A DNA stretch of 64,000 nt from Patescibacteria group bacterium (lineage in GTDB: Bacteria > Patescibacteriota > Minisyncoccia > Phycocordibacterales > PALSA-1337), in NCBI GenBank assembly GCA_024654575.1, contig JANLHG010000005.1, positions 1,260 to 65,259 of the forward strand, written 5' to 3'. A model generated the notes under the pieces. That model saw nothing but the letters and a program-made list of their open reading frames with translations, had not been told where the DNA came from and ran no database searches. Below, piece after piece: positions 2,693 to 52,021 of the stretch (position 1 is its first letter; each line of letters begins with the position of its first letter). A program made the translations under genes and the position numbers.

Positions 2693-3985
2693 TTATAAAT
2701 AAGAAAGTGGATTAAGATACGCTTTTTGAGTTGCCACCGGAATACGTATGTTTTTGCAATTTATACTATTAACCAATGGTGACACTTGTATACCTTGAGT
2801 CGCGTAAACACTAAAGTGCAAATGCGCTCCAGAAGGTCCTGGTGGAAGTACGTAGCCACTATAACCACTGTAAGCGATAATATCACCTGTTTTTACTTCT
2901 TGCCCCGCACTGACTAATTGAGATGAAAGATGTGCATACACCGTTGAAAGACCATTGTTATGCTTAACAAGAATCCATCTACCATATGAATAACAGTTTG
3001 GTAATATACCAGTATCACCTATTTCTACAATTGTTCCAGATAAAACAGTTCTAACTGGAGTACCTGTAGTTGCTCGTAAATCAATACCATTATGCCCTTT
3101 TCCATTGTAAGCTTGAGGATTTTGAGTTGCGAAATTAGTGTTACCAAAATATTGAGTAATGTGAACATTATCAAGAGGCCATTGTAAAACTCCAGCTCCG
3201 GCTTTTGGTATACTATTAGGGTCAATTGTAATCCTTAATTCCTGTTCCAAATTAGCTAAATCATCTTCAAAAGCTTTCGCAAGGGCTTTCTTATTATCAA
3301 GTATTTTTTTATAATTAGCTTCTTGATTTTTTGTTTGAGCCAATAAGTCAGCTTTCTCTTTTTTTATATCTTCTACTGATTTTGTCTGTCCTTTAAGTTG
3401 ATTACTAAAGCTCAATAATTGAACTTTATTTTTTTCTGTTTTTATCTTATTTTGTTCAAGTTGAATTTTTGTATCTTCTAAGTCTTTTATGGTTTCCCTG
3501 ATAGTTGATTGGAAACGAGTTAATTTTTCTAATTCGTTCCAAAACTCCCCCAGATCTCCAAATTCAATAAGTGTCTCAATGAGCGATTTAGACTCCTCAA
3601 CATTTATTTTATAAAAAGTTTTACTTATAATTTTAATATCTTCTTCAATACGATTACTCTTATCTCCTATATCAAGTTTTAATTGCTCTATAACGATATT
3701 AGCTGTTTGTATCTTATTTTGCGTAATTTGAATATCTTTTGATAATTTCTTTCTAGTTATTTCTAATCCATCAACTGTACCCTTCAGAGTATTGGCTTGA
3801 TTTGATATTACATCAACTTGGTCTTGATACTGAGCAATTTCTTGTTTAAGTTGATTAAGTAAAACATTCTGCTCATCTATTTTTTGTCTGAGTTCTTCCG
3901 CTTTGTCGGCATAAACATTATTTCCAAAAAATAAAATAAATGCTAATAAAACTATAGTTAATATTTTCCATTTATGATAAAACAT
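2693..3985 (-). CDS. Coiled-coil murein DD-endopeptidase, M23 (LytM) family, EnvC-like
   Basis: Has an N-terminal signal/TM segment and a long coiled-coil (Q/E/K-rich heptads). The C-terminus carries the GHNGIDL and HLHFSVY (HxH) M23 metal-binding motifs. Confidence 0.85.
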   Translation of the reverse strand: MFYHKWKILTIVLLAFILFFGNNVYADKAEELRQKIDEQNVLLNQLKQEIAQYQDQVDVISNQANTLKGTVDGLEITRKKLSKDIQITQNKIQTANIVIEQLKLDIGDKSNRIEEDIKIISKTFYKINVEESKSLIETLIEFGDLGEFWNELEKLTRFQSTIRETIKDLEDTKIQLEQNKIKTEKNKVQLLSFSNQLKGQTKSVEDIKKEKADLLAQTKNQEANYKKILDNKKALAKAFEDDLANLEQELRITIDPNSIPKAGAGVLQWPLDNVHITQYFGNTNFATQNPQAYNGKGHNGIDLRATTGTPVRTVLSGTIVEIGDTGILPNCYSYGRWILVKHNNGLSTVYAHLSSQLVSAGQEVKTGDIIAYSGYSGYVLPPGPSGAHLHFSVYATQGIQVSPLVNSINCKNIRIPVATQKAYLNPLSYL

Positions 3986-5309
3986 GAATTGCTTTTGAAA
4001 TTCTTAAGATTACTTCTTCTTTTCCTAAAATATATATCAAAGAAAAAGGGTCTGGTGATTTATCTTTTCCCGATAGGGCATAGCGAACAGGCCAAAGAAC
4101 ACCCCCCTTCCCTTCTTTTTCGGCATAAGACATTATTTGATTTTTAATATCATCAACACTCCAATTCCCTATTTTATTTATAGAATCAATTACTTTTTCT
4201 AAGTGAATGACAGTTTTTTTAGAATCATTTTCATTCTTCCAAAATAATTTATCTTTTGTATATTCTGGTTCATTAAAAAAGTAATCCAACTCCCCCGCTT
4301 CTATCATTGTGTCTATGTCAGAATAAACATTGATACGGTCGAAAATAATCATTAATAACTTTTCCAAATATTCATCTGATACAACATATTTTTTCTCTAT
4401 TCTTTTTTTAATTTCTTTAAATACTATTTTTTTGTCTAACTTTTTTAGATATTCTTTATTAATCCAATTAAGTTTTTCAATATTAAAAATCGCTCCACTT
4501 TTTTGCACTTTAGCTAGATCAAATTGTGCAATAAGTTCGTCTATACTAAATATTTCTTTTGTCGTTCCGGGGTTCCATCCGAGAAAGGCAAGATAATTAA
4601 TAATTGCTTCGGGGAGATAACCCTTTTCTCTGTAATCATCAACACTCACTGCACCGTGCCTACCTGAAAGTTTAGATTTATCAGGAGCAAGAATAAGTGG
4701 TAAATGAGCATAAATAGGCGTCGGAGCACCTATCGCTTGTTGTATAAGAATTTGTCTGGGAGTGTTAGAAATGCCATCTTCTCCACGAATAATATGAGTA
4801 ATACCCATTTCAAAATCATCAATAACAACTGCTAAATGATAAATTGGTTCCTCCAAAGATTTTGCAATAACAAAATCACCAAGCTCTGTTGTATCAAACT
4901 CTATGTCACCTCGGATTAAATCTGTAAATTTTATTTTTTTATTTGAATTTTTAAAACGAATAACCTCATTTCTTTTCCCTTCCTCTACTTCTTCCTTTGA
5001 AAAATAAGCTTTGTCTTCATCAATGAGTTTCTTCAAATATGTTTTATATATATCATTACGTTGTGATTGCCAAAATGGACCATCATCATAACTAATCCCC
5101 AACCATTCTAAACAATCAAGCATATTTTTTTCATACTCCTTCTTTGATCGTTCTTTATCTGTATCTTCAAATCTAAAAACTATTTTACCTTTATTTTGTT
5201 TTGTAAAAAGGTAGTTAAAAAGAAATGTTCTTGCCCGTCCAATATGCAAAAAACCGGTAGGACTAGGTGGAAATCTGGTAATGACTTTCATACCAGTATA
5301 ATAACACAA
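3972..5309 (-). CDS. gltX: Glutamyl-tRNA synthetase (class I aaRS)
   Basis: RFPPSPTGFLHIGRARTFLFNY contains the HIGH motif in GluRS context. KLSGRHGA is a KMSKS-like motif. Length is about 440 aa. The true start is probably the MKVITRF Met. Confidence 0.9.
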   Translation of the reverse strand: MCYYTGMKVITRFPPSPTGFLHIGRARTFLFNYLFTKQNKGKIVFRFEDTDKERSKKEYEKNMLDCLEWLGISYDDGPFWQSQRNDIYKTYLKKLIDEDKAYFSKEEVEEGKRNEVIRFKNSNKKIKFTDLIRGDIEFDTTELGDFVIAKSLEEPIYHLAVVIDDFEMGITHIIRGEDGISNTPRQILIQQAIGAPTPIYAHLPLILAPDKSKLSGRHGAVSVDDYREKGYLPEAIINYLAFLGWNPGTTKEIFSIDELIAQFDLAKVQKSGAIFNIEKLNWINKEYLKKLDKKIVFKEIKKRIEKKYVVSDEYLEKLLMIIFDRINVYSDIDTMIEAGELDYFFNEPEYTKDKLFWKNENDSKKTVIHLEKVIDSINKIGNWSVDDIKNQIMSYAEKEGKGGVLWPVRYALSGKDKSPDPFSLIYILGKEEVILRISKAIHVLS

Positions 5310-5779: not shown

Positions 5780-7018
5780 TCAATAATTCTTTAGCAACTC
5801 TAAAGCCTTATTCATTTGTGGGTCAATTTTCTTATCTATATCAGTCTGAGATATTTTAACTTCATAATCCGGCTTTAAACCTCCTTCAGAAATGGAATTA
5901 CCTTTTGGAGTAAGCCACCTTGCGACTGTTACTTTAAGAGACGTATCTGAAGTTATAGGAACAAGTTCTTGAACAGAACCTTTACCAAAGGTTTTCGTAC
6001 CAACTAACTTGACAATACCATGTTCTTGTAATGCACCTGCCAAAATCTCTGATGCTGAAGCCGAACCTCCATCAACTAAAATAATAAAATGTAAATTAGA
6101 AAAAACATTATATCCCCTACTTCTGTATATTTTATCATCACCGTTTTTACCAAAATCTTCAGTCACAACAATTTTTCCACTTGGTAAAAACCAACTCGCC
6201 ATGTCCACCGATGCTTCAAGATAACCTCCTGGATTACTACGAAGATCTAAAATCAGTTTTTGGGAACCTGATTCATAAAATTGTCTCAATGCATTTCTAA
6301 ACAGGTCAGGAGAATTAGCAGAAAAACTATATAATTTAATTACAAAAACACCATCTTTTCTTAATTCGGTGTCAATAGTTGGTAAATCAATAGTATCTCT
6401 AGTTATTTTGACATCAAACGGTGCTTTTATACCTTCACGAAAGACATTAAGAGTTACTATAGTCCCCTTTTTACCTCTAATGAAACTAACCGCATTATCC
6501 GTAGACATGTCAATTGTACTGGTAGCATTTATTTTAACAATTTTATCTCCCACCTTAATTCCAGCCTTTTCGGCAGGACTACCTTTCAAAGGAGCGACTA
6601 CTGTTAATATTTGGTCTTTCAGAGCAATCTCCATTCCAACTCCTTCAAAATTCCCAGCGATATCACTTTCAAATATTTTTGATTCTTTAGGAGGAAAAAA
6701 AACTGTATAAGGGTCACCCATTGAGCTAGCTAGTCCTTGCATAGCACCCCAAATTCTCTCTTGATCATTTGGAATTGGTTTTGAAGAAACATATTTTTCA
6801 GTTAAAATTGACCATTCTTTCCAGAATGGAGAAAGGTCTACAGAATTTATATTTGCAACATTTATTCGGTTTTTAGAACCAGCATAAGCACCGGCCATAA
6901 ATACCAAACCTAAAATCACCATCGCCACCACTACTGACGAAACATATTTCAAATATTTATTATTCATAAGTAAAAATATTATATCATATGCTATAATATT
7001 TTCTATTATGGTCATCAA
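5780..7018 (-). CDS. ctpA: Carboxyl-terminal processing protease (peptidase S41, CtpA/Prc-like) with PDZ domain
   Basis: Has an N-terminal TM segment and a PDZ-like region (GIKVGDKIVKIN). The S41 catalytic region is LRSNPGGYLEASVDMASWF. Confidence 0.85.
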   Translation of the reverse strand: MMTIIENIIAYDIIFLLMNNKYLKYVSSVVVAMVILGLVFMAGAYAGSKNRINVANINSVDLSPFWKEWSILTEKYVSSKPIPNDQERIWGAMQGLASSMGDPYTVFFPPKESKIFESDIAGNFEGVGMEIALKDQILTVVAPLKGSPAEKAGIKVGDKIVKINATSTIDMSTDNAVSFIRGKKGTIVTLNVFREGIKAPFDVKITRDTIDLPTIDTELRKDGVFVIKLYSFSANSPDLFRNALRQFYESGSQKLILDLRSNPGGYLEASVDMASWFLPSGKIVVTEDFGKNGDDKIYRSRGYNVFSNLHFIILVDGGSASASEILAGALQEHGIVKLVGTKTFGKGSVQELVPITSDTSLKVTVARWLTPKGNSISEGGLKPDYEVKISQTDIDKKIDPQMNKALELLKNY

Positions 7019-8345
7019 ACTTCACAACACATTGTCTGGAGAAAAAGAAGAATTTAAACCTCTCAATGAAGGAAAGGTTGGTATTTATAATTGTGGACCA
7101 ACAGTTTACGATATTGCACACATAGGAAATCTCAGAACTATGGTTTTTTATGACATTATCAGAAGAATATTTGAATATAATGAGTATAAAGTAGAACAAG
7201 TGATGAATATTACAGATGTTGATGATAAAACAATCCGTAAAAGTATCGAAGAAAAAATAACACTCACTGAACTAACAGAAAAATATGAAAAGCTTTTTTT
7301 TGAAGATATTGAAAAACTCAATATTATTAAACCACAAAAAATACTTTCTGCCAGAGCACATATGTCAGAAATTATAGAACTTATATCAACACTAATTAAA
7401 AATGGTTCAGCATACGAAGCGAGTGACGGAATCTATTTTAAAATTTCAAATTGTAAAAACTACGGATTACTAGCTAGATTAAAATTAGATAAACCGACTC
7501 AAGAAAGAATAGAAAATGATGAGTATGATAAAGAAAACCCTCGTGATTTTGCTTTATGGAAGTTTTATAAAGAAAATGACGGAGATGCAGTGTGGACCGC
7601 GCCCTTCGGGCGCGGTCGCCCTGGTTGGCATATTGAATGCTCAGCTATGGCTATAAAATCACTAGGAGACACGCTTGATATCCACGCTGGTGGAAGTGAT
7701 TTGATTTTTCCTCATCACACAAATGAAATCGCTCAGTCAGAATCAGCAACTAGAAAAACCTTTGTAAACTATTGGCTTCATGGAGGAATGATGAATGTTC
7801 AAAGTGACAAAATGGCGAAATCAAAAGGTAATTTTCTAAAATTAAAAGAGTTAATTGAAGAAAAAATATCACCCCTCGCATATCGTTATTGGCTTCTTAC
7901 TGCACATTATCGAACACAAATTAATTTTACTTTTGAAGCAGTTTCAGCATCTCAAACCGCATTAATAAACTTTTGTAATTATTTTATGGCATTTGGAGAA
8001 AAAAGTGGTGAAATTGATATAGATTACAATAATAAATTTATTGACTTCATAAATAACGATTTGGATATGCCTAAGGCAGTAGCTCTGGCTTGGGAATTGA
8101 TTAAAGATAAAAATATTTCAAACGAAAACAAAAAAGCTACTCTATTAAAATTTGACGAAGTATTCGGATTAAAATTAAAAGACCTAAAAATTCCTGATAA
8201 TAATGAAGAGATACCAGAAGAAATCAAGTTTTTGATTGAAGAAAGAGAAAATGCCCGCAAAGCTAAAGATTTCAAAAAATCCGACGCCCTAAGGAGTGAA
8301 ATAGAAGCTAGAGGGTATAAAGTCAAAGATATACCCTTATCTTAA
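7008..8345 (+). CDS. cysS: Cysteinyl-tRNA synthetase
   Basis: YNCGPTVYDIAHIGNLRT contains the HIGH region. RPGWHIECSAM is the Zn/cysteine-binding motif. KMAKSKGN is the KMSKS motif. Confidence 0.92.
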   Translation: MVIKLHNTLSGEKEEFKPLNEGKVGIYNCGPTVYDIAHIGNLRTMVFYDIIRRIFEYNEYKVEQVMNITDVDDKTIRKSIEEKITLTELTEKYEKLFFEDIEKLNIIKPQKILSARAHMSEIIELISTLIKNGSAYEASDGIYFKISNCKNYGLLARLKLDKPTQERIENDEYDKENPRDFALWKFYKENDGDAVWTAPFGRGRPGWHIECSAMAIKSLGDTLDIHAGGSDLIFPHHTNEIAQSESATRKTFVNYWLHGGMMNVQSDKMAKSKGNFLKLKELIEEKISPLAYRYWLLTAHYRTQINFTFEAVSASQTALINFCNYFMAFGEKSGEIDIDYNNKFIDFINNDLDMPKAVALAWELIKDKNISNENKKATLLKFDEVFGLKLKDLKIPDNNEEIPEEIKFLIEERENARKAKDFKKSDALRSEIEARGYKVKDIPLS

Positions 8346-8364: not shown

Positions 8365-8394
8365 TTGACATAAAACTATCTTATGGTGTATAAT
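8365..8394 (+). promoter_or_regulatory. Near-consensus sigma70 promoter (TTGACA-18-TATAAT) driving the GC-rich orphan gene
   Basis: ttgaca at 8365-8370 and tataat at 8389-8394. Downstream is a roughly 110-nt leader with two hairpins (cttag…ctaag; ttcct-tg-cacc-GAAA-ggtg-aggaa) and two SD-like sites. Confidence 0.6.
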
Positions 8395-8507: not shown

Positions 8508-9005
8508 ATGACATTCAAAAACGAAGAATTCGTAATCAACAACGGGCCGTCAAAGATCGATCTTATGTTTTCCTTATTCGATACTGACATGGGAAAGCGG
8601 ATGTTAGAATTTCACACGCCTCAGTGGGTTCACACCCACGATGCGAATGATTTCAAAGTTCAGATTACTTCCGCACGAAGACGAAATCCGGCGGCGACGA
8701 TCTGGGAGATCGAAGGAATCACTGACGCTCAAGGTGGGAAGACGCGAGTCTCCATCTATTATCTCTCGGACACCCGCGAAGGTCGCATGAGGTTCGAGGA
8801 AGAGCTTCGGACTCATGGCATCATGGAAACGCCGGACGACGCCAAAAGAGCAAGGGCCCTCATGATCATCATCCAGAAGATGGTGGCCATCGCTCAGTAT
8901 CACGGCGGCTTGCCCGAAGAGTTCTACGTCCTGTTCGAGAAGGCAAAAAAAATCAAATTTGCCGAAGATCGTGATTCACTCACTGAAGCTGTCAAAGGCA
9001 TCTAA
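8508..9005 (+). CDS. Hypothetical protein (165 aa), compositionally foreign (about 50% GC against a roughly 30% background)
   Basis: Strong RBS AAAGGAG 8 nt upstream of the ATG. It has its own promoter and terminator. Codons are GC3-rich, unlike the neighbours. No recognisable motif. Confidence 0.6.
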   Translation: MTFKNEEFVINNGPSKIDLMFSLFDTDMGKRMLEFHTPQWVHTHDANDFKVQITSARRRNPAATIWEIEGITDAQGGKTRVSIYYLSDTREGRMRFEEELRTHGIMETPDDAKRARALMIIIQKMVAIAQYHGGLPEEFYVLFEKAKKIKFAEDRDSLTEAVKGI

Positions 9006-9026: not shown

Positions 9027-9066
9027 AAGCGCATCTGCAAAGATGCGCTTTAACTTTAATTTTTTA
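9027..9066 (+). terminator. Rho-independent terminator
   Basis: Perfect hairpin aagcgcatc-tgcaaa-gatgcgctt followed by a T-rich tract. Confidence 0.7.
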
Positions 9067-11509: not shown

Positions 11510-11550
11510 ATAAAAAAAAGCGGGTCGTTGCACAACGACCCGCTTCGCGA
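11510..11550 (-). terminator. Rho-independent terminator downstream of the lone mreB paralog
   Basis: The minus-strand reading is aagcgggtcgttgtgcaacgacccgc followed by tttttttt. Confidence 0.7.
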
Positions 11551-18057: not shown

Positions 18058-18110
18058 AAATGAATTATTTCACTTTTTTACCAAAAATGCTATGATACAA
18101 ATATTCCGGC

Positions 18111-18185
18111 GTGGCGCAGCGGTAGAGTGAAGAAGCGAATACTTGGAGCTTCTGCAAGGCCGGAGCGTGACGGCGCGAGGCAGGG
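18111..18185 (+). pseudogene. Degenerate tRNA-like fragment (pseudo-tRNA related to the adjacent tRNA-Asn 5' half)
   Basis: TCCGGCGTGGCGCAGCGGTAGAGTG…AAGCGAATACTTGG aligns to the tRNA-Asn 5' portion TCCGGTGTAGCTCAGCGGTAGAGCA…TAAGCGATTGG. It does not fold into a cloverleaf. Confidence 0.35.
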
Positions 18186-18256
18186 TCGAAATATTTTTTA
18201 TCAAAAAAATACTTTTGACGGCACCTGTTTTTATAATTTTAAAAATCGTATTGTGT

Positions 18257-18332
18257 GCTCCGGTGTAGCTCAGCGGTAGAGCAGTCGCCTGTTAAGCGAT
18301 TGGTCGCAGGTTCGATCCCTGCCGCCGGAGCA
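18257..18332 (+). tRNA. tRNA-Asn (anticodon GTT)
   Basis: Cloverleaf by eye: acceptor TCCGGTG/CGCCGGA, D arm GCTC-AGCGGTA-GAGC, anticodon stem GTCGC/GCGAT with loop CTGTTAA, T arm GCAGG-TTCGATC-CCTGC, discriminator G73. No encoded CCA. Confidence 0.85.
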
Positions 18333-18355
18333 GACAATAGGATTTAAATCATGTG

Positions 18356-18395
18356 TAAGCGATTGGTCGTTGGTTCGAATCCAACCGCCGGAGCA
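18356..18395 (+). repeat. Duplicated tRNA 3' half (anticodon-loop to 3' end) with compensatory T-stem substitutions, att-like
   Basis: TAAGCGATTGGTCG-TTGG-TTCGAAT-CCAA-CCGCCGGAGCA compared with tRNA-Asn TAAGCGATTGGTCG-CAGG-TTCGATC-CCTG-CCGCCGGAGCA. T-stem pairing is preserved despite different bases. It lies 24 nt after the intact tRNA. Confidence 0.7.
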
Positions 18396-18476
18396 GTTGA
18401 CAAGTATATTTAACTATGATTAGATAACATAATAGTAGTTTTTTGACATATTTTTTGGTAGTTAGCTATTTTTCTT

Positions 18477-33760: not shown

Positions 33761-33792
33761 AAAAACCAAACACTCGGTGTTTGGTTTTGTGA
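33761..33792. terminator. Bidirectional Rho-independent terminator between convergent genes
   Basis: aaaaaccaaacac-tcg-gtgtttggtttt is a perfect 10-bp stem flanked by an A-run and a T-run. Confidence 0.65.
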
Positions 33793-33813: not shown

Positions 33814-34950
33814 TCAACCAACAAGTTTCCATAGAAGCTCAGTTCCTCCTTTGAAGACTTGGACTTCTCCGACTTTCTGCGGAACGACAAGCGCCCCGCG
33901 TTCGATCGTCATCATCTCCGAGCTCACTTCCATGCCATAAAGCGCGAGGAAGTTTTCGGAAAGGAACGGACCGAGATGTTCGAGTGCGTTGTCCTGGTCG
34001 AAGGTCATCGTGTAGAGCTCAACGGCCGAGGGAGCGGTGAAGATGCCAGCCGCACAGCCATAGCAGCGAGACTTTGCACTTTCATCGTGAGGAGCGGAAT
34101 CCGTTCCTGCTCCGAAGCGACGATTACCCGAAGTCACATACTGCCGGACTTTTGCACGATGCGTTTCGCGCTTCGGCACAGGCTTGCAGTAGTGGCCAGG
34201 ATTCATCCCACCCCAGAACATGGCGTTGCGATTAATCATCAGATGATGAGCAGTCACAGTCGCATGGATATCGTGATCGACTTCTGCGACGAAGTCGGCC
34301 GCTCGTCCATCGGTGAGATGTTCGAAGACCACCGGCAATCCTGGAAAGGACTTGAGGATGGGCTTGAGGTCGCGGTCCACGGAAACGCTCTCGCGATCGA
34401 ATTCGTCGACATCTTCCTCGACTGCTTCGAAGTGTCCAAGCAATGGGATTTTGTGTTTCTCCATCACCTCGAACACCGGATAGCGACCAAGAAGATTCTT
34501 CACGCCGTGCGCCGAGCCAGTGGTGCCACCCTGGCCTTTTTGATTGGCCATGTAGAGCTTCACCGCTCGCCAAACACCTTCTTCGAAACCGCGCACGACT
34601 TCTTCAGGATCGATATGATCCGTCAGATACAGCGTCATGCAAGGCACGAAGTCGTAATCCTTCTTCCAATACCATTCTTGTCCTTTCGGAGCATTAGTAT
34701 TGAAGCGTAAACTCGTCATAACTTGTTCGATCTCTTTACGGTAATCTTTCGCTTTTTCAATCGTCGTTACCGGGTCAGCAAGGTTTGGCATGATAATCGC
34801 CCCCGTTGCATGCTGTTTGAGTGTACACGGAAGAACGGTCTTGAGCATATCACCACTTCGAAGGTGAAGATGACGGTCAAACCATCGAGGTATTGTTACC
34901 GAGTTTTCTTTCATGAGTTTTCCTTTTTGATAAACGATGTGGGTTTCCAC
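33814..34950 (-). CDS. pyrC: Dihydroorotase, type II (E. coli PyrC-like); GC-rich foreign composition
   Basis: FDRHLHLRSGDMLKTVLP, AIIMPNLADPVTT, CMTLYLTDHIDPEEVVRGFEEGV, PLLGHFE, VVFEHLT, GTDSAPH and CYGCAAGIFTAPSA align motif-by-motif to E. coli PyrC. DNA is about 55% GC. Confidence 0.9.
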   Translation of the reverse strand: METHIVYQKGKLMKENSVTIPRWFDRHLHLRSGDMLKTVLPCTLKQHATGAIIMPNLADPVTTIEKAKDYRKEIEQVMTSLRFNTNAPKGQEWYWKKDYDFVPCMTLYLTDHIDPEEVVRGFEEGVWRAVKLYMANQKGQGGTTGSAHGVKNLLGRYPVFEVMEKHKIPLLGHFEAVEEDVDEFDRESVSVDRDLKPILKSFPGLPVVFEHLTDGRAADFVAEVDHDIHATVTAHHLMINRNAMFWGGMNPGHYCKPVPKRETHRAKVRQYVTSGNRRFGAGTDSAPHDESAKSRCYGCAAGIFTAPSAVELYTMTFDQDNALEHLGPFLSENFLALYGMEVSSEMMTIERGALVVPQKVGEVQVFKGGTELLWKLVG

Positions 34951-35780
34951 GGAGTCCGCAGATGAATTGCACCGAAGCCGATCGCTTTCGCGCCGAGCCT
35001 CCTAAGCTTTTCCATGTCTTCGAATTCCATGATACTTGGACCGATCACAGGAAGCGATCCTTGTTTAGCGAGAGCTTCGACTGCCGCCCAGTTGTGTTTC
35101 TGTGCCGGTTTGCCGGAGACGCCTCCGCCTCCACCACCGACTTGTTTTTCGAGCTTCGCTAAAGGGGTCTGCCCGCTGTTAGTAAAGACCGTCTTCCACG
35201 GCACGCTGTTGAGGGAAACCGCTTCCGCGATTCCGACAAGTCCGCGTGCAATAGTGAGATAGTCCTGATCAGCCGAGACTTTGACGATTACGGGGTGACG
35301 CGAAGCGCGTTTGACCGCCTTCACACTATTCACCACCATTTCTGCCTGTTCGATTGCATGGCCAGTATTCGGACACGAGACGTTGACTTCAAGCGCAACG
35401 ATATCGAAGCGATTGAGCATCTCCGCCATTTCCACCAGTTCCTTTTCATCGCCGAAAATTGATCCGGCTGTTGGGAACTTTTTGAAATCGAGTTTGGGAC
35501 CGACTTCTCGGCACCACCACTCGACACCAGGATTAGTGAGCCCAACTTTATTGACCGCTCCGCCTGGAATCAGGCGAACGCAGGTCCAAGGCTTCCACCA
35601 TCGTAGGTTTCCGATACGCGGGTTGCGCGTCAGAGATTTGATGACTACAGTGAAGAGTTCGGGCTTGATGAGACCGAGCCACACCAGTGGCCGTTCCCAA
35701 GGCCAGCCCTTGCCATCAAAGGCAAGAGCGCCGCTTGCAACCATGTATTTGAACGCATGTCCGTTTGATAATGTGATCAT
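34911..35780 (-). CDS. pyrD: Dihydroorotate dehydrogenase, class 1 (Cys active site, PyrD 1A-like); GC-rich foreign composition
   Basis: Contains NKVGLTNPGVEW, ALEVNVSCPNTGH (NxSCPN), GGGGGVSGKP and a C-terminal GFGAIHL. It overlaps pyrC by 40 nt. Confidence 0.85.
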   Translation of the reverse strand: MITLSNGHAFKYMVASGALAFDGKGWPWERPLVWLGLIKPELFTVVIKSLTRNPRIGNLRWWKPWTCVRLIPGGAVNKVGLTNPGVEWWCREVGPKLDFKKFPTAGSIFGDEKELVEMAEMLNRFDIVALEVNVSCPNTGHAIEQAEMVVNSVKAVKRASRHPVIVKVSADQDYLTIARGLVGIAEAVSLNSVPWKTVFTNSGQTPLAKLEKQVGGGGGGVSGKPAQKHNWAAVEALAKQGSLPVIGPSIMEFEDMEKLRRLGAKAIGFGAIHLRTPWKPTSFIKKENS

Positions 35781-35870
35781 AGGATCTCCGTTTGTTGATC
35801 GTTTTAAATGTTCATTTCCATTCTGACATTACCTTATCTCAAAGTTATTTAATAGTAAAGATATGTTATA

Positions 35871-36224
35871 ATGACCTATATGAAAAAAATACTAATTACT
35901 ATTTTTGTTTTAATTGTTATTTGTGCAATATGGTTTTTTATACGAACTCCATCACCTGTCTTAAATATTCAAGATGCTTCAGCTACTGTAAACATAAAAA
36001 GCTTCGCTTTCAGTCCTTCACAGGTAAACATTAAAGTTGGAGATAAAGTTGTGTGGACGAATTTAGACAGTGCCCCTCACGATGTTACATTTGAAAATGG
36101 TGAGCAATCAAAAACATTAGCTCAAGGTGAAAGTTTTGATACGGTGTTCAACGAACCAGGAACTTATCCATATATTTGTAGTATCCATCCTTCAATGAAA
36201 GGAACTGTTATAGTGTCAAACTAA
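35871..36224 (+). CDS. Cupredoxin (plastocyanin/amicyanin-like type-1 copper protein), membrane-anchored
   Basis: KVGDKVVWTNLDSAPHDVTF…YPYICSIHPSMKGTVIV supplies the His…Cys…His…Met copper ligands. Confidence 0.8.
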   Translation: MTYMKKILITIFVLIVICAIWFFIRTPSPVLNIQDASATVNIKSFAFSPSQVNIKVGDKVVWTNLDSAPHDVTFENGEQSKTLAQGESFDTVFNEPGTYPYICSIHPSMKGTVIVSN

Positions 36225-39926: not shown

Positions 39927-39954
39927 CCCTCGCGCTTGCGCGAGGGCTTTTTTA
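39927..39954 (+). terminator. Rho-independent terminator (GC-rich perfect hairpin)
   Basis: ccctcgcgc-ttgc-gcgcgaggg followed by ctttttt. Confidence 0.7.
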
Positions 39955-45047: not shown

Positions 45048-46220
45048 TTAATAATTCCTTAATCGGTTAATATTTTCGTGTTCGCGGATTTTATCATGTG
45101 CTTTGGCTTCAATTTGACGAATTCTTTCTCGAGTAACCCCAAATTCTTTTCCCACCTCTTCAAGAGTATGAGTAATACCATCAACCAATCCATGTCTCAT
45201 TTCAAGAATTTTTCTCTCCTTCAAAGATAAATCTCCTAAAATATCCTTGACCTGATCACCTAAAATTCTACGAGAAGAATCCTGGTCTGGAGAAAGAATT
45301 TTATCATCTGAAAGGAAATCACCGAGTGTTGATTTGTCTTCACCGTCATCACCAACAGGACTTTCCAAAGAAACTGTATCCTGATCTATTTTCTCAATAT
45401 TATAAATTTTTTCAACATCAAGTCCCATTTCCGTAGCGATTTCTTCCGCTAATGGTTCTCGTCCTAAATCTTGACTAAGTCGTCGCACCACTTGTTTGTA
45501 TTTTGCAATTGTCTCAACCATATGCACCGGCACACGAATAGTTCTTGATTGGTCAGCCAAAGCTCTAGTAATAGCTTGTCTAATCCACCAAGTAGCATAA
45601 GTTGAAAATTTGTATCCTTTAGTCCAATCAAATTTATCAACAGCTTTAAAAAGACCGAGATTTCCTTCTTGAATTAAATCAAGTAAAGTTAAATCTGGAC
45701 TTCGTCCAACATATTTTTTAGCAATAGAAACAACGAGACGAAGGTTTGCACGTGCCAGTAAATTTTTTGCTTCTTCTTCTCCTTTTTGAATTCTTTTTGC
45801 TAAATCTTTTTCAACCGAAGCCGGAACAAGCGGATATTGTCCGATTTCCTTTAAATACATTTGAATAGAATCATATGCTGAATCACTTTTACCATAACTA
45901 TACTTTTTAGAAACGGGTTCCTCAGGTTCTATATCTAAAATACCACCACCTTCAAGAATATCTACTCCAGCTTCTGCTAATTTATTATAGAGATCATCAA
46001 GACCATTTATATTTTCTTCAATCGTTGGAAAATCTCTTAAAATCTCATCATAAGTAACAAATCCCCTCTCTTTTCCTTTCTCAAGTAATTTTTCTGATTT
46101 TACACTAAACTCTTTAGCTTTACTTAAAACTGCTTTTTTAGGCCTAATCTTAGCCTTATTTTTCTTTTTTTTGATAACTTTGACCTTTTTTTTTGGAACC
46201 CTTTTTTTAGATTTCTTCAT
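45048..46220 (-). CDS. rpoD: RNA polymerase sigma-70 factor RpoD
   Basis: [24 protein letters not shown] is region 2.4/3.0. Region 4.2 is an HTH. A Lys-rich N-terminal tail is present. The gene sits in a dnaG-rpoD tandem. Confidence 0.9.
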
Positions 46221-46237
46221 ATGTAAGTAATACTATA

Positions 46238-47971
46238 CTATCTTTTCTTCAATAATTCAATACGAGATGATAACTCTTGACATTCCTCAAGAATTTTTAG
46301 TGCTTGTTCAGAATCTTTTTTCTTTTCTGCCGAAGCAAGTTCAAACATTTTTTTACCAAATAATTGTTTTAAATGTTCCAATTCAAAATTACACAAAAGT
46401 TCCTCAATTTCTTTTGTAAGATTTTTTTGATTTGAATAAGTTATTTCGGCTTGAAATATCATTTCGTTTTTTTCTGTCTCCAATATTTTTATATTTTCAA
46501 AAAAATCTTTTCCAAGCAAAGAAATTATTTTATTTTTAATTTCTTTTATGTCCAATGTTGGCTCTTTCATCTTTTCCTGCCAAAAAATTATACCTAGGAG
46601 TTTCCTATGTATAGAATTTTTGGGGCGATTATCTGCCCCGCCCGCTTGAGCGGGCGGGGCTATCATTTTCGGTATTTTTTTCAAATCTTCCCAAATAGCA
46701 TCTTCGCTAATCCCAGTTTTATTATGAATCGTTTTCACAAAATGTGATTGTTCCATATTACTTGATAAAACTGCAACGAGTGGAAGTACTTTTTCTTTTA
46801 TTCCTTTTGTTATTTTTAATTGGTCAGCTGTTTCTTTCACAATCCTATCTATATTAAAATCAATAATATTTTTTGAATTTTTGATAACATCTTTCCATTC
46901 AGTTGGATTAGCTAGTATAAAATCAGCGGGGTCTTTTCCTGATGGAACAGTAGCAATTTTAATATCCATTCCCAAAGAAAGTCCGATGATAGCTGACCGT
47001 TCGGTGGCATTAAGTCCAGCGTTATCAGCATCAAAAGCCAAAATCATATTATGAGAAAGTCGATTGATAATTCCAAGATTATTTACAGCATTTTCTCTCG
47101 TCATTAACGAATCAGTTAATGCCGTACCCGAAACCGCAACGGTATTTTTATAACCAGCTTGATGAGACATAATAAGGTCCATTTGCCCTTCCACTAAGAT
47201 TGAAAAATTTAATTTTCTAATATGACTTTTTGCCTTATCAATTCCATAAAGAACATTGCTCTTATTAAAAAGTTCAGTGTCTGGACTATTTAAATATTTA
47301 GCTGATTTGTCGTCATCAACTAAAATCCTACCAGAAAAAGCAATTACTCTTCCCCCACTATCCATAATAGGAAACATAATTCTGCCCCGAAAACGATCAT
47401 AATGGCCTGCCTGCGCAGGCGGGCCTTTTTCTGTTTTTTTAGTCAGTCCCACTTTTTCAATATCATTATCGCTATATCCCTTACTTCTCAAGTGGGTGTG
47501 TAATTTACGCCATTCATCTGGAATAAAACCAATTCTAAATTCTTTTATGGTTTTATCTACTAATCCGCGATTTTGAAGATATTTTTTTGCATCTGGATAA
47601 ATATTTAATAAACTTTCAAAAAACTTACATGCTTCTTCCATAATATTATAAAGCCGTTCTTTTTCTGTTTTAACCTGTGGATTTTCATGAATAATTTCCA
47701 CACCCGCCCGTCCTGCCAACATTTTCAAAGCCCCCATAAAATCCAACCCTTCAAAATTCTGCACGAATTCAAAAATATCACCTTTTGCTCCACATCCGAA
47801 ACAATAATAACTTCCCCGTTCAGGCGATACAAAAAAACTAGGAGTTTTCTCATTATGAAAAGGACATTTTCCTTTCAAATTCGCCCCCGCCCGCTCAAGT
47901 TTTATATATGATTCAACAACATCGACAATAGAAAGTCGCTGTTTTATTTGCTCTACGGTATTAGAAGCCAT
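46238..47971 (-). CDS. dnaG: DNA primase DnaG (contains two in-frame GC-rich palindromic insertions encoding PPAQAG)
   Basis: The Zn ribbon is CPFHNEKTPSFFVS…CFGCG. The Toprim region is ILVEGQMD…FDADNAG. Confidence 0.9.
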   Translation of the reverse strand: MASNTVEQIKQRLSIVDVVESYIKLERAGANLKGKCPFHNEKTPSFFVSPERGSYYCFGCGAKGDIFEFVQNFEGLDFMGALKMLAGRAGVEIIHENPQVKTEKERLYNIMEEACKFFESLLNIYPDAKKYLQNRGLVDKTIKEFRIGFIPDEWRKLHTHLRSKGYSDNDIEKVGLTKKTEKGPPAQAGHYDRFRGRIMFPIMDSGGRVIAFSGRILVDDDKSAKYLNSPDTELFNKSNVLYGIDKAKSHIRKLNFSILVEGQMDLIMSHQAGYKNTVAVSGTALTDSLMTRENAVNNLGIINRLSHNMILAFDADNAGLNATERSAIIGLSLGMDIKIATVPSGKDPADFILANPTEWKDVIKNSKNIIDFNIDRIVKETADQLKITKGIKEKVLPLVAVLSSNMEQSHFVKTIHNKTGISEDAIWEDLKKIPKMIAPPAQAGGADNRPKNSIHRKLLGIIFWQEKMKEPTLDIKEIKNKIISLLGKDFFENIKILETEKNEMIFQAEITYSNQKNLTKEIEELLCNFELEHLKQLFGKKMFELASAEKKKDSEQALKILEECQELSSRIELLKKR

Positions 47972-51876: not shown

Positions 51877-52021
51877 AATCCTTTGTCAATTTTGAATACG
51901 AATTTACATCGCATTCTATATATCAGAATAGGTCTGACATACTCTGCTGTAATATTTACATGAAGATTACTATATAGTCAAATCTGTGACCCCATAGGCA
52001 AGACCTATGGGGTAGAATTTG

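Follow-up and report, generated by a model that had tools for sequence, protein, structure and literature searches.

Short inverted repeats are documented sites of template switching during replication, in E. coli and yeast as well as in RNA genes (PMC5941160, PMC8794818, PMC8604942), and the process is known to replace several residues at once in coding DNA (PMC8604942). One form of it is quasi-palindrome correction, known from the Ripley model and from the E. coli thyA and lacZ hotspots (Lavi et al. 2018, PMC5941160; Monttinen & Loytynoja 2022, PMC8794818; Abraham & Hazkani-Covo 2021, PMC8604942). Whether perfect stems arise through selection on paired point mutations or through single templated events is debated, and a test case is provided here by a 64-kb stretch of DNA (33.5% GC) from a Patescibacteria group bacterium, hereafter the window. 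Within it, the cysteinyl-tRNA synthetase gene cysS carries a perfect, GC-rich 10-bp inverted repeat, and the DNA primase gene dnaG hosts three related GC-rich tracts. All genome searches reported below cover the window and a set of related loci, which are designated by L-numbers. The cysS 23-mer is a DNA-level quasi-palindrome overlaid on coding sequence, and is neither an inserted element nor a transcription signal. We propose, as the best reading though an evenly poised one, that template switching at replication gave rise to these quasi-palindromes in cysS and dnaG and keeps their arms matched.

The palindrome, GACCGCGCCC-TTC-GGGCGCGGTC, spans positions 7595-7617 (left arm, 7595-7604; loop, 7605-7607; right arm, 7608-7617) and lies in frame inside cysS (7008-8345, + strand), which encodes a cysteinyl-tRNA synthetase (CysRS) of 445 aa. 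The product belongs to the Pfam family tRNA-synt_1e and is 100% identical to the NCBI entry 'cysteine--tRNA ligase [Patescibacteria group bacterium]'; the DnaG of the window likewise has a 100% match among the NCBI 'Patescibacteria group bacterium' proteins. Of the named organisms, Candidatus Taylorbacteria comes closest. CysRS aligns over its whole length with the E. coli enzyme 1LI5 (E 2.6e-95), and the motif encoded at the palindrome is gapless (WTAPFGRGRPGWHIEC versus WPSPWGAGRPGWHIEC). An earlier note on this DNA had described an exact palindrome here, in frame and at a conserved motif, and the sequence, the open reading frame (ORF), and the 1LI5 alignment all agree with that description. 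Two of its figures need revision: the GC content of the palindrome is 19/23, or 83%, rather than about 75%, and that of the window is 33.5%, where about 30% had been given for the genome. The palindrome lies within a GC-rich codon patch (7592-7629, + strand; at least 80% GC in 20-nt windows), which also includes the following CGC CCT GGT TGG. At the positions of this patch, more distant cysS orthologues use AGA/CGG and AT-rich codons.

Read in codons, the element is (TG)G ACC GCG CCC TTC GGG CGC GGT C(GC), encoding W-T-A-P-F-G-R-G-R. It is symmetric about the second base of the Phe codon, so that, as read off the sequence, the codons pair as ACC/GGT, GCG/CGC, and CCC/GGG. First positions therefore pair with third positions and second positions with second positions, and each degenerate third base faces the amino-acid-fixed first base of the partner codon. 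The two arms are exact reverse complements and can fold (10-bp arms, 3-nt loop), with energies of (i) -22.3 kcal/mol for the sense RNA, (ii) -21.8 kcal/mol for the antisense RNA, and (iii) -14.4 kcal/mol for single-stranded DNA (DNA z = -4.5). When the + strand of the window was folded in sliding 34-nt segments, cysS was the second most stable segment (-22.3 kcal/mol) after dnaG site 2 (-28.1 kcal/mol); with dnaG site 1 (-18.2 kcal/mol), three of the five most stable segments are intragenic. An Rfam search of the whole window reached gathering scores only for two tRNAs, and the cysS stem had no match. We also considered tRNA mimicry or CysRS autoregulation and dropped the idea, as the loop is UUC, not GCA, and there is no acceptor-like feature.

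The cysS palindrome is real and lies far beyond chance. Its codons are rare in the window (ACC, 0.125; GCG, 0.12; CCC, 0.085; GGG, 0.098; CGC, 0.068; frequencies from 65 window ORFs, the two ORFs of a GC-rich island being excluded), and they are the sole synonymous choice that makes T-A-P/G-R-G self-complementary. Given the peptide, the joint probability of the six stem codons is ~3.6e-6 (frequencies multiplied by hand), and that of all eight codons, with the loop and the following CGC included, is 3.6e-8. We then shuffled synonymous codons within each of 67 ORFs, 200 times, and counted stems of at least 9 bp with a GC fraction of at least 0.6, observed and shuffled counts both being redundant over loop sizes. 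Coding DNA of the window contained 6 perfect GC-rich stems, against a mean of 0.04 in the shuffles, none of which (0/200) reached 6. AT-rich stems showed no excess (1 observed versus 2.67 in the synonymous shuffles). As a natural control, ~115 metagenomic cysS genes with the motif WxAPFGRGRPGWH, from genomes of 36-76% GC, were retrieved by a peptide-level DNA pattern for W-x-A-P-F-G-R-G-R-P-G-W-H; their maximum was 8/10 pairs and none reached 10/10, and the low-GC genes among them used AT-rich codons and formed 3-4/10 pairs. The earlier note's view that a perfect stem is improbable by chance is borne out by all three independent comparisons, and the excess of GC-rich palindromes that it suggested looking for is clear in the coding DNA of the window.

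Close relatives keep the palindrome, as the ortholog comparison proposed in the same note reveals, and they do not resort to AT-rich non-palindromic codons, which the note would have counted as a sign of chance. Against the reference state of the window (G ACC GCG CCC TTC GGG CGC GGT C, 10/10 pairs), L005 and L008, two independent ENA assemblies with CysRS identities of 82% and 80%, have G GCC GCG CCC TTC GGG CGC GGC C, again with 10/10 pairs. Here the A-T pair of the window is replaced by G-C through a Thr-to-Ala change plus the synonymous change GGT to GGC, a compensatory pair that leaves the stem perfect. L006 and L007 (Taylorbacteria, NCBI and Logan assemblies; CysRS identity 70%) have GCC GCG CCC TTT GGA CGC GGC, with 9/10 pairs and one C-A mismatch, and L134 (63%) has GAT GCG CCG TTT GGA AAA GGC CGG and no hairpin. 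Between the window and its relatives, one cysS pair has changed on both sides and none on one side, while four-fold sites have diverged from the window by 49% (L005) and 64% (L006). The sole pair that varies in the clade includes the first base of the unconstrained Thr/Ala codon. Other Paceibacteria CysRS have D, E, or P at the first variable position and K, E, or A at the second; the two variable residues of this clade are thus exactly those that permit the palindrome. Judged from these alignments, the cysS palindrome is maintained at the nucleic-acid level in relatives by way of paired changes.

A further relative, L002, is a metagenome-assembled genome labelled Saccharibacteria, whose CysRS is 81% identical to that of the window over the best aligned segment. 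Its positions 3585-3725, orthologous to 7590-7630 of the window, hold a scaffold gap of 10 N and garbled, homopolymer-like stretches of G and C (GGGGGGGGGGCGCGCGCGCGGGCCCCCCCCCCCC) right where the cysS hairpin falls, and cysS is split there into two ORFs. L002 and L005 are ~85% identical over the aligned stretch (left flank, 93%; right flank, 86%). The gap is probably an assembly artefact provoked by the hairpin; a real GC-rich insertion of some length at this place would be the less probable explanation.

The earlier note had also offered functional readings for the stem, of which two do not hold for cysS. For an RPE-like in-frame insertion (Rickettsia palindromic element), we found no extra residues at the motif relative to E. 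coli 1LI5, 5 orthologous genes, and ~120 homologues, and no second copy of the stem in the window or the related loci, where the arm CCGCGCCC occurs only in cysS, save for one chance match in L134. With no length change and no second copy, an insertion or mobile element in cysS was rejected; of the intragenic stems, just the weaker one in dnaG (47404-47425) sits within an insertion. As for an intragenic attenuator, the cysS stem lacks a T/U run behind it on both strands and goes uncalled in the terminator scan; a sense-strand terminator or attenuator was rejected for want of a T tract. Nor did the sequence offer evidence of any dedicated regulatory function for the palindrome. The terminators of this genome consist of an A-run, a perfect stem, and a T-run, and the similar intergenic hairpins that the earlier note had reported are indeed present: (i) after mreB (11518-11545, - strand), with 13-bp perfect arms, of which 12 pairs form around a 4-nt loop, followed by a T run; (ii) at 39927-39946, a GC-rich perfect hairpin between convergent genes, followed by TTTTTT; and (iii) at 51989-52013, an intergenic terminator hairpin.

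As a separate observation on terminators, a hairpin of ~27 nt, AAACCAAACAC-NNN-GTGTTTGGTTT, is shared by three genomes, in each at an intergenic site that is not orthologous to the others and whose flanks are unrelated to theirs (window, 33764-33790; L005, 8953-8979, and L008, 1815; L006, 7013-7040, and L007, 9527). The place in the window orthologous to the L005 copy holds a different terminator, AAGCGCATCTGCAAAGATGCGCTT (9027-9050). It seems that sites exchange hairpin cassettes or receive copies of them.

The hairpins that the same note had reported in dnaG are also confirmed, one of them being imperfect. The gene (46238-47971, - strand) encodes a primase of 577 aa and is followed by rpoD (45048-46220). 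Site 2 (46635-46660), which reads GCCCCGCCCGCT-CA-AGCGGGCGGGGC in the sense direction and encodes APPAQAGGA, has 12-bp perfect arms, of which 11 pairs form around a 4-nt loop when folded (-28.4 kcal/mol), and lies in a stretch that is poorly conserved and of variable length among DnaG homologues. At this site L129 and L131, whose DnaG proteins are 84% and 81% identical to that of the window, have GGCCCCGTTCGCC-GT-GGCGAACGGGGCC, encoding APFAVANGA. Three pairs have changed on both sides and none on one side (shuffle control, 12/500), so that the peptide goes from PPAQAGG to PFAVANG between relatives, while the stem is still perfect (12-13 bp). L130 (65%) has a hairpin of unrelated sequence there (-16.4 kcal/mol), and L132 and L133 (57-58% DnaG identity) have none. 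At dnaG site 2, the structure is kept at the protein's expense.

Site 1 (47404-47425) is an imperfect quasi-palindrome, GGCCcGCCTGC/GCAGGCaGGCC in the sense direction, encoding GPPAQAG. It lies within an 18-nt in-frame insertion with GGCC on both flanks. L130, L132, and L133 lack this insertion, while the corresponding codon of L129 is the site of another one, GC-rich as well but of 24 nt and different. The stem is more stable in the antisense (-18.2 kcal/mol, with a G-U pair) than in the sense direction (-14.5 kcal/mol). We rejected the idea that the PPAQAG shared by sites 1 and 2 marks same-register copies, since the symmetry centres fall in different codons, and treat it as a by-product of GC-rich palindromes read in frame. 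Both dnaG hairpins were called terminator-like, only on the strand antisense to dnaG, where GGCCTGCCTGCGCAGGCGGGCC is followed by TTTTTCTGTT and the site-2 stem by TATCATTTTC. Upstream of site 1, the dnaG of L131 is interrupted by an N run at 250-280 (XXXX in the translation), which splits the gene call and amounts to a further assembly break in dnaG.

The arm sequence of site 2 also occurs elsewhere in the gene. At 47885-47899 (- strand), in the N-terminal coding region and 1.24 kb from site 2, lies a 15-nt exact inverted copy of the site-2 arm together with its asymmetric loop, CTTGAGCGGGCGGGG in the sense direction, within codons CTT GAG CGG GCG GGG (LERAG). At the same place L129 has CTTGATCGAGCTGGATCA, within codons CTT GAT CGA GCT GGA TCA; this amounts to several clustered substitutions in the window lineage, 2 of them non-synonymous and 3 synonymous to rare codons, all towards the palindrome. 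CTTGAGCGGGCGGGG is the only repeated 15-mer with a GC fraction of at least 0.6 in the window, for a first-order Markov expectation of 0.05. A fourth copy of the 8-mer CGGGCGGG lies at 47703-47710 (- strand; sense GGA CGG GCG GGT, peptide GRAG), where L129 has AGT CGA GCG GGT. All four copies of this 8-mer in the 64-kb window are inside dnaG, and the dnaG genes of the relatives contain none. The 15-nt copy, the most informative of these observations, is, in comparison with L129, a footprint of templated copying, not of independent point mutation. The dnaG stems stay perfect while the peptide changes, and arm sequence has been copied elsewhere in the gene.

Under template switching, one cysS arm would have been written as the reverse complement of the other in a single replication event; GCC GCG CCC and GGG CGC GGC are exact reverse complements. 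Such an inverted copy (GCC GCG CCC to GGG CGC GGC) would explain why this clade has Arg (CGC) in place of the Lys/Glu/Ala of other Paceibacteria and Ala/Thr (GCC/ACC) in place of their Asp/Glu, as well as the clustering of five rare G/C-ending codons. The pattern of maintenance is seen directly, and its mechanism may be as follows: a third-position mutation would make a mismatch, and template-switch correction would then either erase the mutation or copy it onto a base that alters a conserved residue, in which case the variant would be lost. Third bases would thereby be tied to protein-fixed first bases, so that rare GC-rich codons persist despite AT pressure. The only pair that has changed, A-T to G-C (Thr to Ala), sits at an unconstrained residue. 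Over the 23 pairs of cysS and dnaG site 2 together, 4 pairs changed on both sides, none changed on one side, and there were no G-U states; two-sided change without G-U is the signature reported for template-switch correction (PMC8794818, PMC5941160). The imperfect stems showed no strand preference (2 more stable in sense, 2 in antisense; n = 4), as expected for a DNA-level process, and the same stabilities gave no signal of strand-specific RNA selection, which was rejected on that ground. Stable single-stranded DNA hairpins are formed only by GC-rich stems (-14 to -18 kcal/mol), and only GC-rich stems are in excess. Moreover, the feature is lineage-restricted, being absent at 63% (cysS) and 57-58% (dnaG) amino-acid identity, which fits a recent mutational origin better than an ancient function. 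Among the roles that the earlier note had proposed, a recombination or replication hotspot fits best, given the 15-nt reverse-complement copy of arm and loop that overwrote another segment of dnaG. The consequences would be a -22 kcal/mol stem-loop in either transcript and hairpin-prone DNA, which may break short-read assemblies, as at L002.

Several observations weigh against template switching as the whole explanation. The six G/C third positions of the cysS patch are retained more often than the divergence of four-fold sites would predict (L005, 6/6 identical, p=0.004; L006, 5/6, p=0.006), and at dnaG site 2, which has no amino-acid anchor, 9/11 G-C pairs are unchanged relative to L129 (p=0.006). 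Unbiased arm-to-arm correction should drift to A-T, yet G-C is retained, so that selection for stability or GC-biased repair would be needed in addition. Taken alone, cysS covariation is not significant in the shuffle control (170/500), and the sampling is thin, with three distinct sequences each for cysS and for dnaG site 2. In cysS the founding event is postulated rather than reconstructed. Template-switch-like clusters between the window and L005 gave 6 reverse-complement matches, versus 5 and 5 in two nonsense controls. More generally, a cluster scan of the window versus L005, L129, L131, and L002 showed no excess over reversed-only and complement-only controls, the GC-rich events in dnaG apart; if the process is real, it is confined to GC-rich stems. 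The earlier note had suggested selection for a stable hairpin; its maintenance at the nucleic-acid level is supported here, and selection itself is neither shown nor excluded. Template correction explains the perfection of the stems, and the retention of G-C pairs above neutral leaves room for selection.

The same retention, which extends to both genes and to the unconstrained dnaG stretch, is what recommends a serious though less probable rival account, in which natural selection keeps a stable mRNA stem-loop and template switching is merely the mutational route. Such a stem-loop might act as an exonuclease-decay barrier for the downstream operon (ORF165-dnaB-recR after cysS, rpoD after dnaG), as an RNase processing site, or as a ribosome or RNA-polymerase pause. 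A hairpin does recur at the same dnaG site in three lineages with differing sequences, the stems (85-100% GC) are far GC-richer than the genome's terminators, their codons are also rare codons, and a genome that is 89% coding may need to place structural elements inside genes. Against it stand the complete absence of G-U pairs and single-sided changes and the C-A mismatches in the sense strand of 2/4 imperfect stems; the element is missing from slightly more distant relatives with the same operons, the extra arm copies in dnaG have no obvious local-hairpin role, and the stems share no position, loop motif, or flanking signal. It is conceivable, though we would not expect it, that the essential genes of this Candidate Phyla Radiation (CPR; Paceibacteria) lineage harbor a gene-embedded class of selected, very stable GC-rich stem-loops. 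The further supposition that such a class is kept for stability despite its peptide cost, renewed by templated copying, and placed in genes for want of intergenic space is, in our view, likewise doubtful. If true, the class could act on mRNA (decay barrier, processing, pausing) or on DNA (a hairpin or cruciform signal at the fork), and the cysS catalytic motif, by coinciding with a nucleic-acid structure, would be under a genuine dual-coding constraint.

The terminator-like calls on the antisense strand of both dnaG hairpins, together with the greater antisense stability of site 1, would suit an antisense or bidirectional terminator that stops spurious antisense transcripts in AT-rich DNA while sense transcription reads through, and a two-strand element of this kind needs perfect symmetry. 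This is nonetheless quite improbable: near the cysS stem both strands lack a T run and the scan makes no call, in L129 the dnaG stems are followed by T runs that are weak or displaced, the antisense promoter candidates (15) offered no convincing excess over shuffles (11.3 +/- 2.9), and the coding strand is A-rich, so that a T-rich antisense tail would follow ~30% of stems by chance (a binomial estimate that assumes ~40% A). Improbable, too, is a small mobile palindromic element, that is, a GC-rich hairpin cassette transposed or copied into genes where in-frame insertion is tolerated. While dnaG site 1 represents a genuine in-frame insertion of 18 nt with GGCC at both ends, and L129 has another, 24-nt insertion there, while both dnaG palindromes of the window encode PPAQAG and arm sequence has spread within dnaG, and while an unrelated 27-nt terminator hairpin sits at non-orthologous sites in three genomes and the GC clusters of yeast, too, form GC-rich palindromes amid AT-rich DNA, insert in frame in var1, and act as hotspots of gene conversion (PMC8811140), cysS has no insertion and its stem is single-copy in the window and related loci. 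Further, the three intragenic stems have no common consensus and, at 22-26 nt, are far shorter than RPEs, and the 10 proteins of the window that were scanned include neither a transposase nor a RAYT-like product. Least probable of all is that chance, amino-acid composition, or a short patch acquired horizontally from a GC-rich donor produced the stem. P, G, A, and R do force G/C at codon positions 1 and 2, and GC-rich genomes reach 7-8/10 pairs through codon usage (for example, L092, GCG CCC TTC GGG CGC GGC), but a joint codon probability of ~4e-6, 0/200 shuffles, and 0/~115 genes at 10/10 speak otherwise, as do the compensatory change in L005/L008 and the persistence of the palindrome and its G/C third positions where four-fold sites are 49-64% diverged; a 35-nt donor patch would, in addition, have lacked flanking identity to support recombination.

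These stems are a clean natural example of nucleic-acid palindromy, not protein function, dictating local codon and residue choice in essential genes. Because they lie in essential coding genes, the cost of each route can be read in the peptide: PPAQAGG to PFAVANG in dnaG, and Lys to Arg and Asp to Ala/Thr in cysS. They also call for caution in comparative genomics: where a reduced, AT-rich genome shows clustered non-synonymous changes or a series of rare codons, palindrome homogenisation rather than adaptation can be the source. Finally, hairpins of this kind may break up or corrupt essential genes in short-read assemblies and thereby bias completeness estimates and pseudogene calls for CPR genomes.

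Elsewhere in the window, a few features stand apart from the palindromes. Between cysS and dnaB, a 165-aa ORF (8508-9005) without a Pfam family has a GC content above that of its neighbours, is kept in L005 and L008, and contains two conserved internal hairpins, near 8613 and 8785; a promoter with a perfect 12/12 sigma-70 consensus (TTGACA, 18 nt, TATAAT) lies just upstream, at 8365-8394. The GC-rich island mentioned above (33814-35780; 49.6% GC in 34001-36000 versus 33% overall) comprises two minus-strand ORFs, one related to dihydroorotate dehydrogenase (PF01180) and one of 378 aa with no Pfam match, and was probably acquired horizontally; a cupredoxin gene (35871-36224) follows it. The tRNA-Asn gene (18259-18331) has, within 18100-18400, a tRNA-like 5' fragment (tccggcgtggcgcagcggtagag, from ~18106) and then a GC-rich stretch on one side, and downstream a duplicate 3' half (18357-18396) whose T-arm is altered on both sides (gcagg/cctgc to gttgg/ccaac). 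Neither ARAGORN nor Rfam called the flanking fragments, which could be the remnant of an integration event or a decayed second tRNA. With both orientations counted, 85 exact 15-mers recur at distances above 60 nt, versus ~27 in first-order Markov sequences, a null that is not codon-aware; one example is ATATTATTCGTGGAGAA, found at 4779 and 9257 in different genes. The excess could reflect codon or peptide structure, or further short templated copies.

Several known systems invite comparison with the stems. RPEs are likewise in-frame palindromic DNA tolerated in essential genes of a reduced genome. They reportedly measure ~100-150 bp, form repeated families, and add an extra peptide segment to the host protein (Ogata et al. 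2000). The cysS palindrome shares neither that size nor the family membership nor the extra residues, which occur only at dnaG site 1. REP/BIME elements are extragenic, of high copy number, and marked by a conserved GTAG/CGTC head (PMC3733652); the cysS palindrome is intragenic and single-copy and has no GTAG/CGTC tetranucleotide. With intrinsic terminators it has in common a GC-rich perfect stem and a 3-4 nt loop, the genome's own terminators also being perfect palindromes, but it has no U/T tract on either strand and sits mid-gene, where full transcription is required. Yeast mitochondrial GC clusters are similar in being short GC-rich palindromes in an AT-rich genome, in frame in var1, and preferential sites of conversion and recombination (PMC8811140); they differ in forming multi-copy families with terminal target-site repeats that are mostly intergenic and counted as mobile, whereas the cysS stem is single-copy, involves no insertion, and encodes conserved catalytic residues. 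Of the further features of GC clusters, related copies are seen here only within dnaG, where a GGCC repeat also flanks the site-1 insertion, with nothing comparable at cysS.

The closest kind is the inverted repeat maintained by template switching, all of whose defining features that could be checked here were found. With quasi-palindrome correction the stems share (i) perfect arms, (ii) 'compensatory' changes without G-U intermediates, (iii) replacement of neighbouring residues in coding DNA, (iv) conservation of perfect inverted repeats between related genomes, and (v) reverse-complement multi-nucleotide changes, the last of these observed for dnaG (15 nt, against the L129 state) and postulated for cysS. 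They depart from it in that they are 83-100% GC in a 33% GC genome, with G-C pairs retained above neutral sites; that the cysS stem is codon-for-codon self-complementary on the catalytic motif of an essential enzyme; that one dnaG copy event spans 1.24 kb rather than a local hairpin; and that the window scan showed no general excess of such events. When we searched the literature for palindromes of this type (intragenic and GC-rich, in CPR bacteria), nothing specific turned up, and we regard the stems as a probable further instance of the known template-switch inverted repeats.

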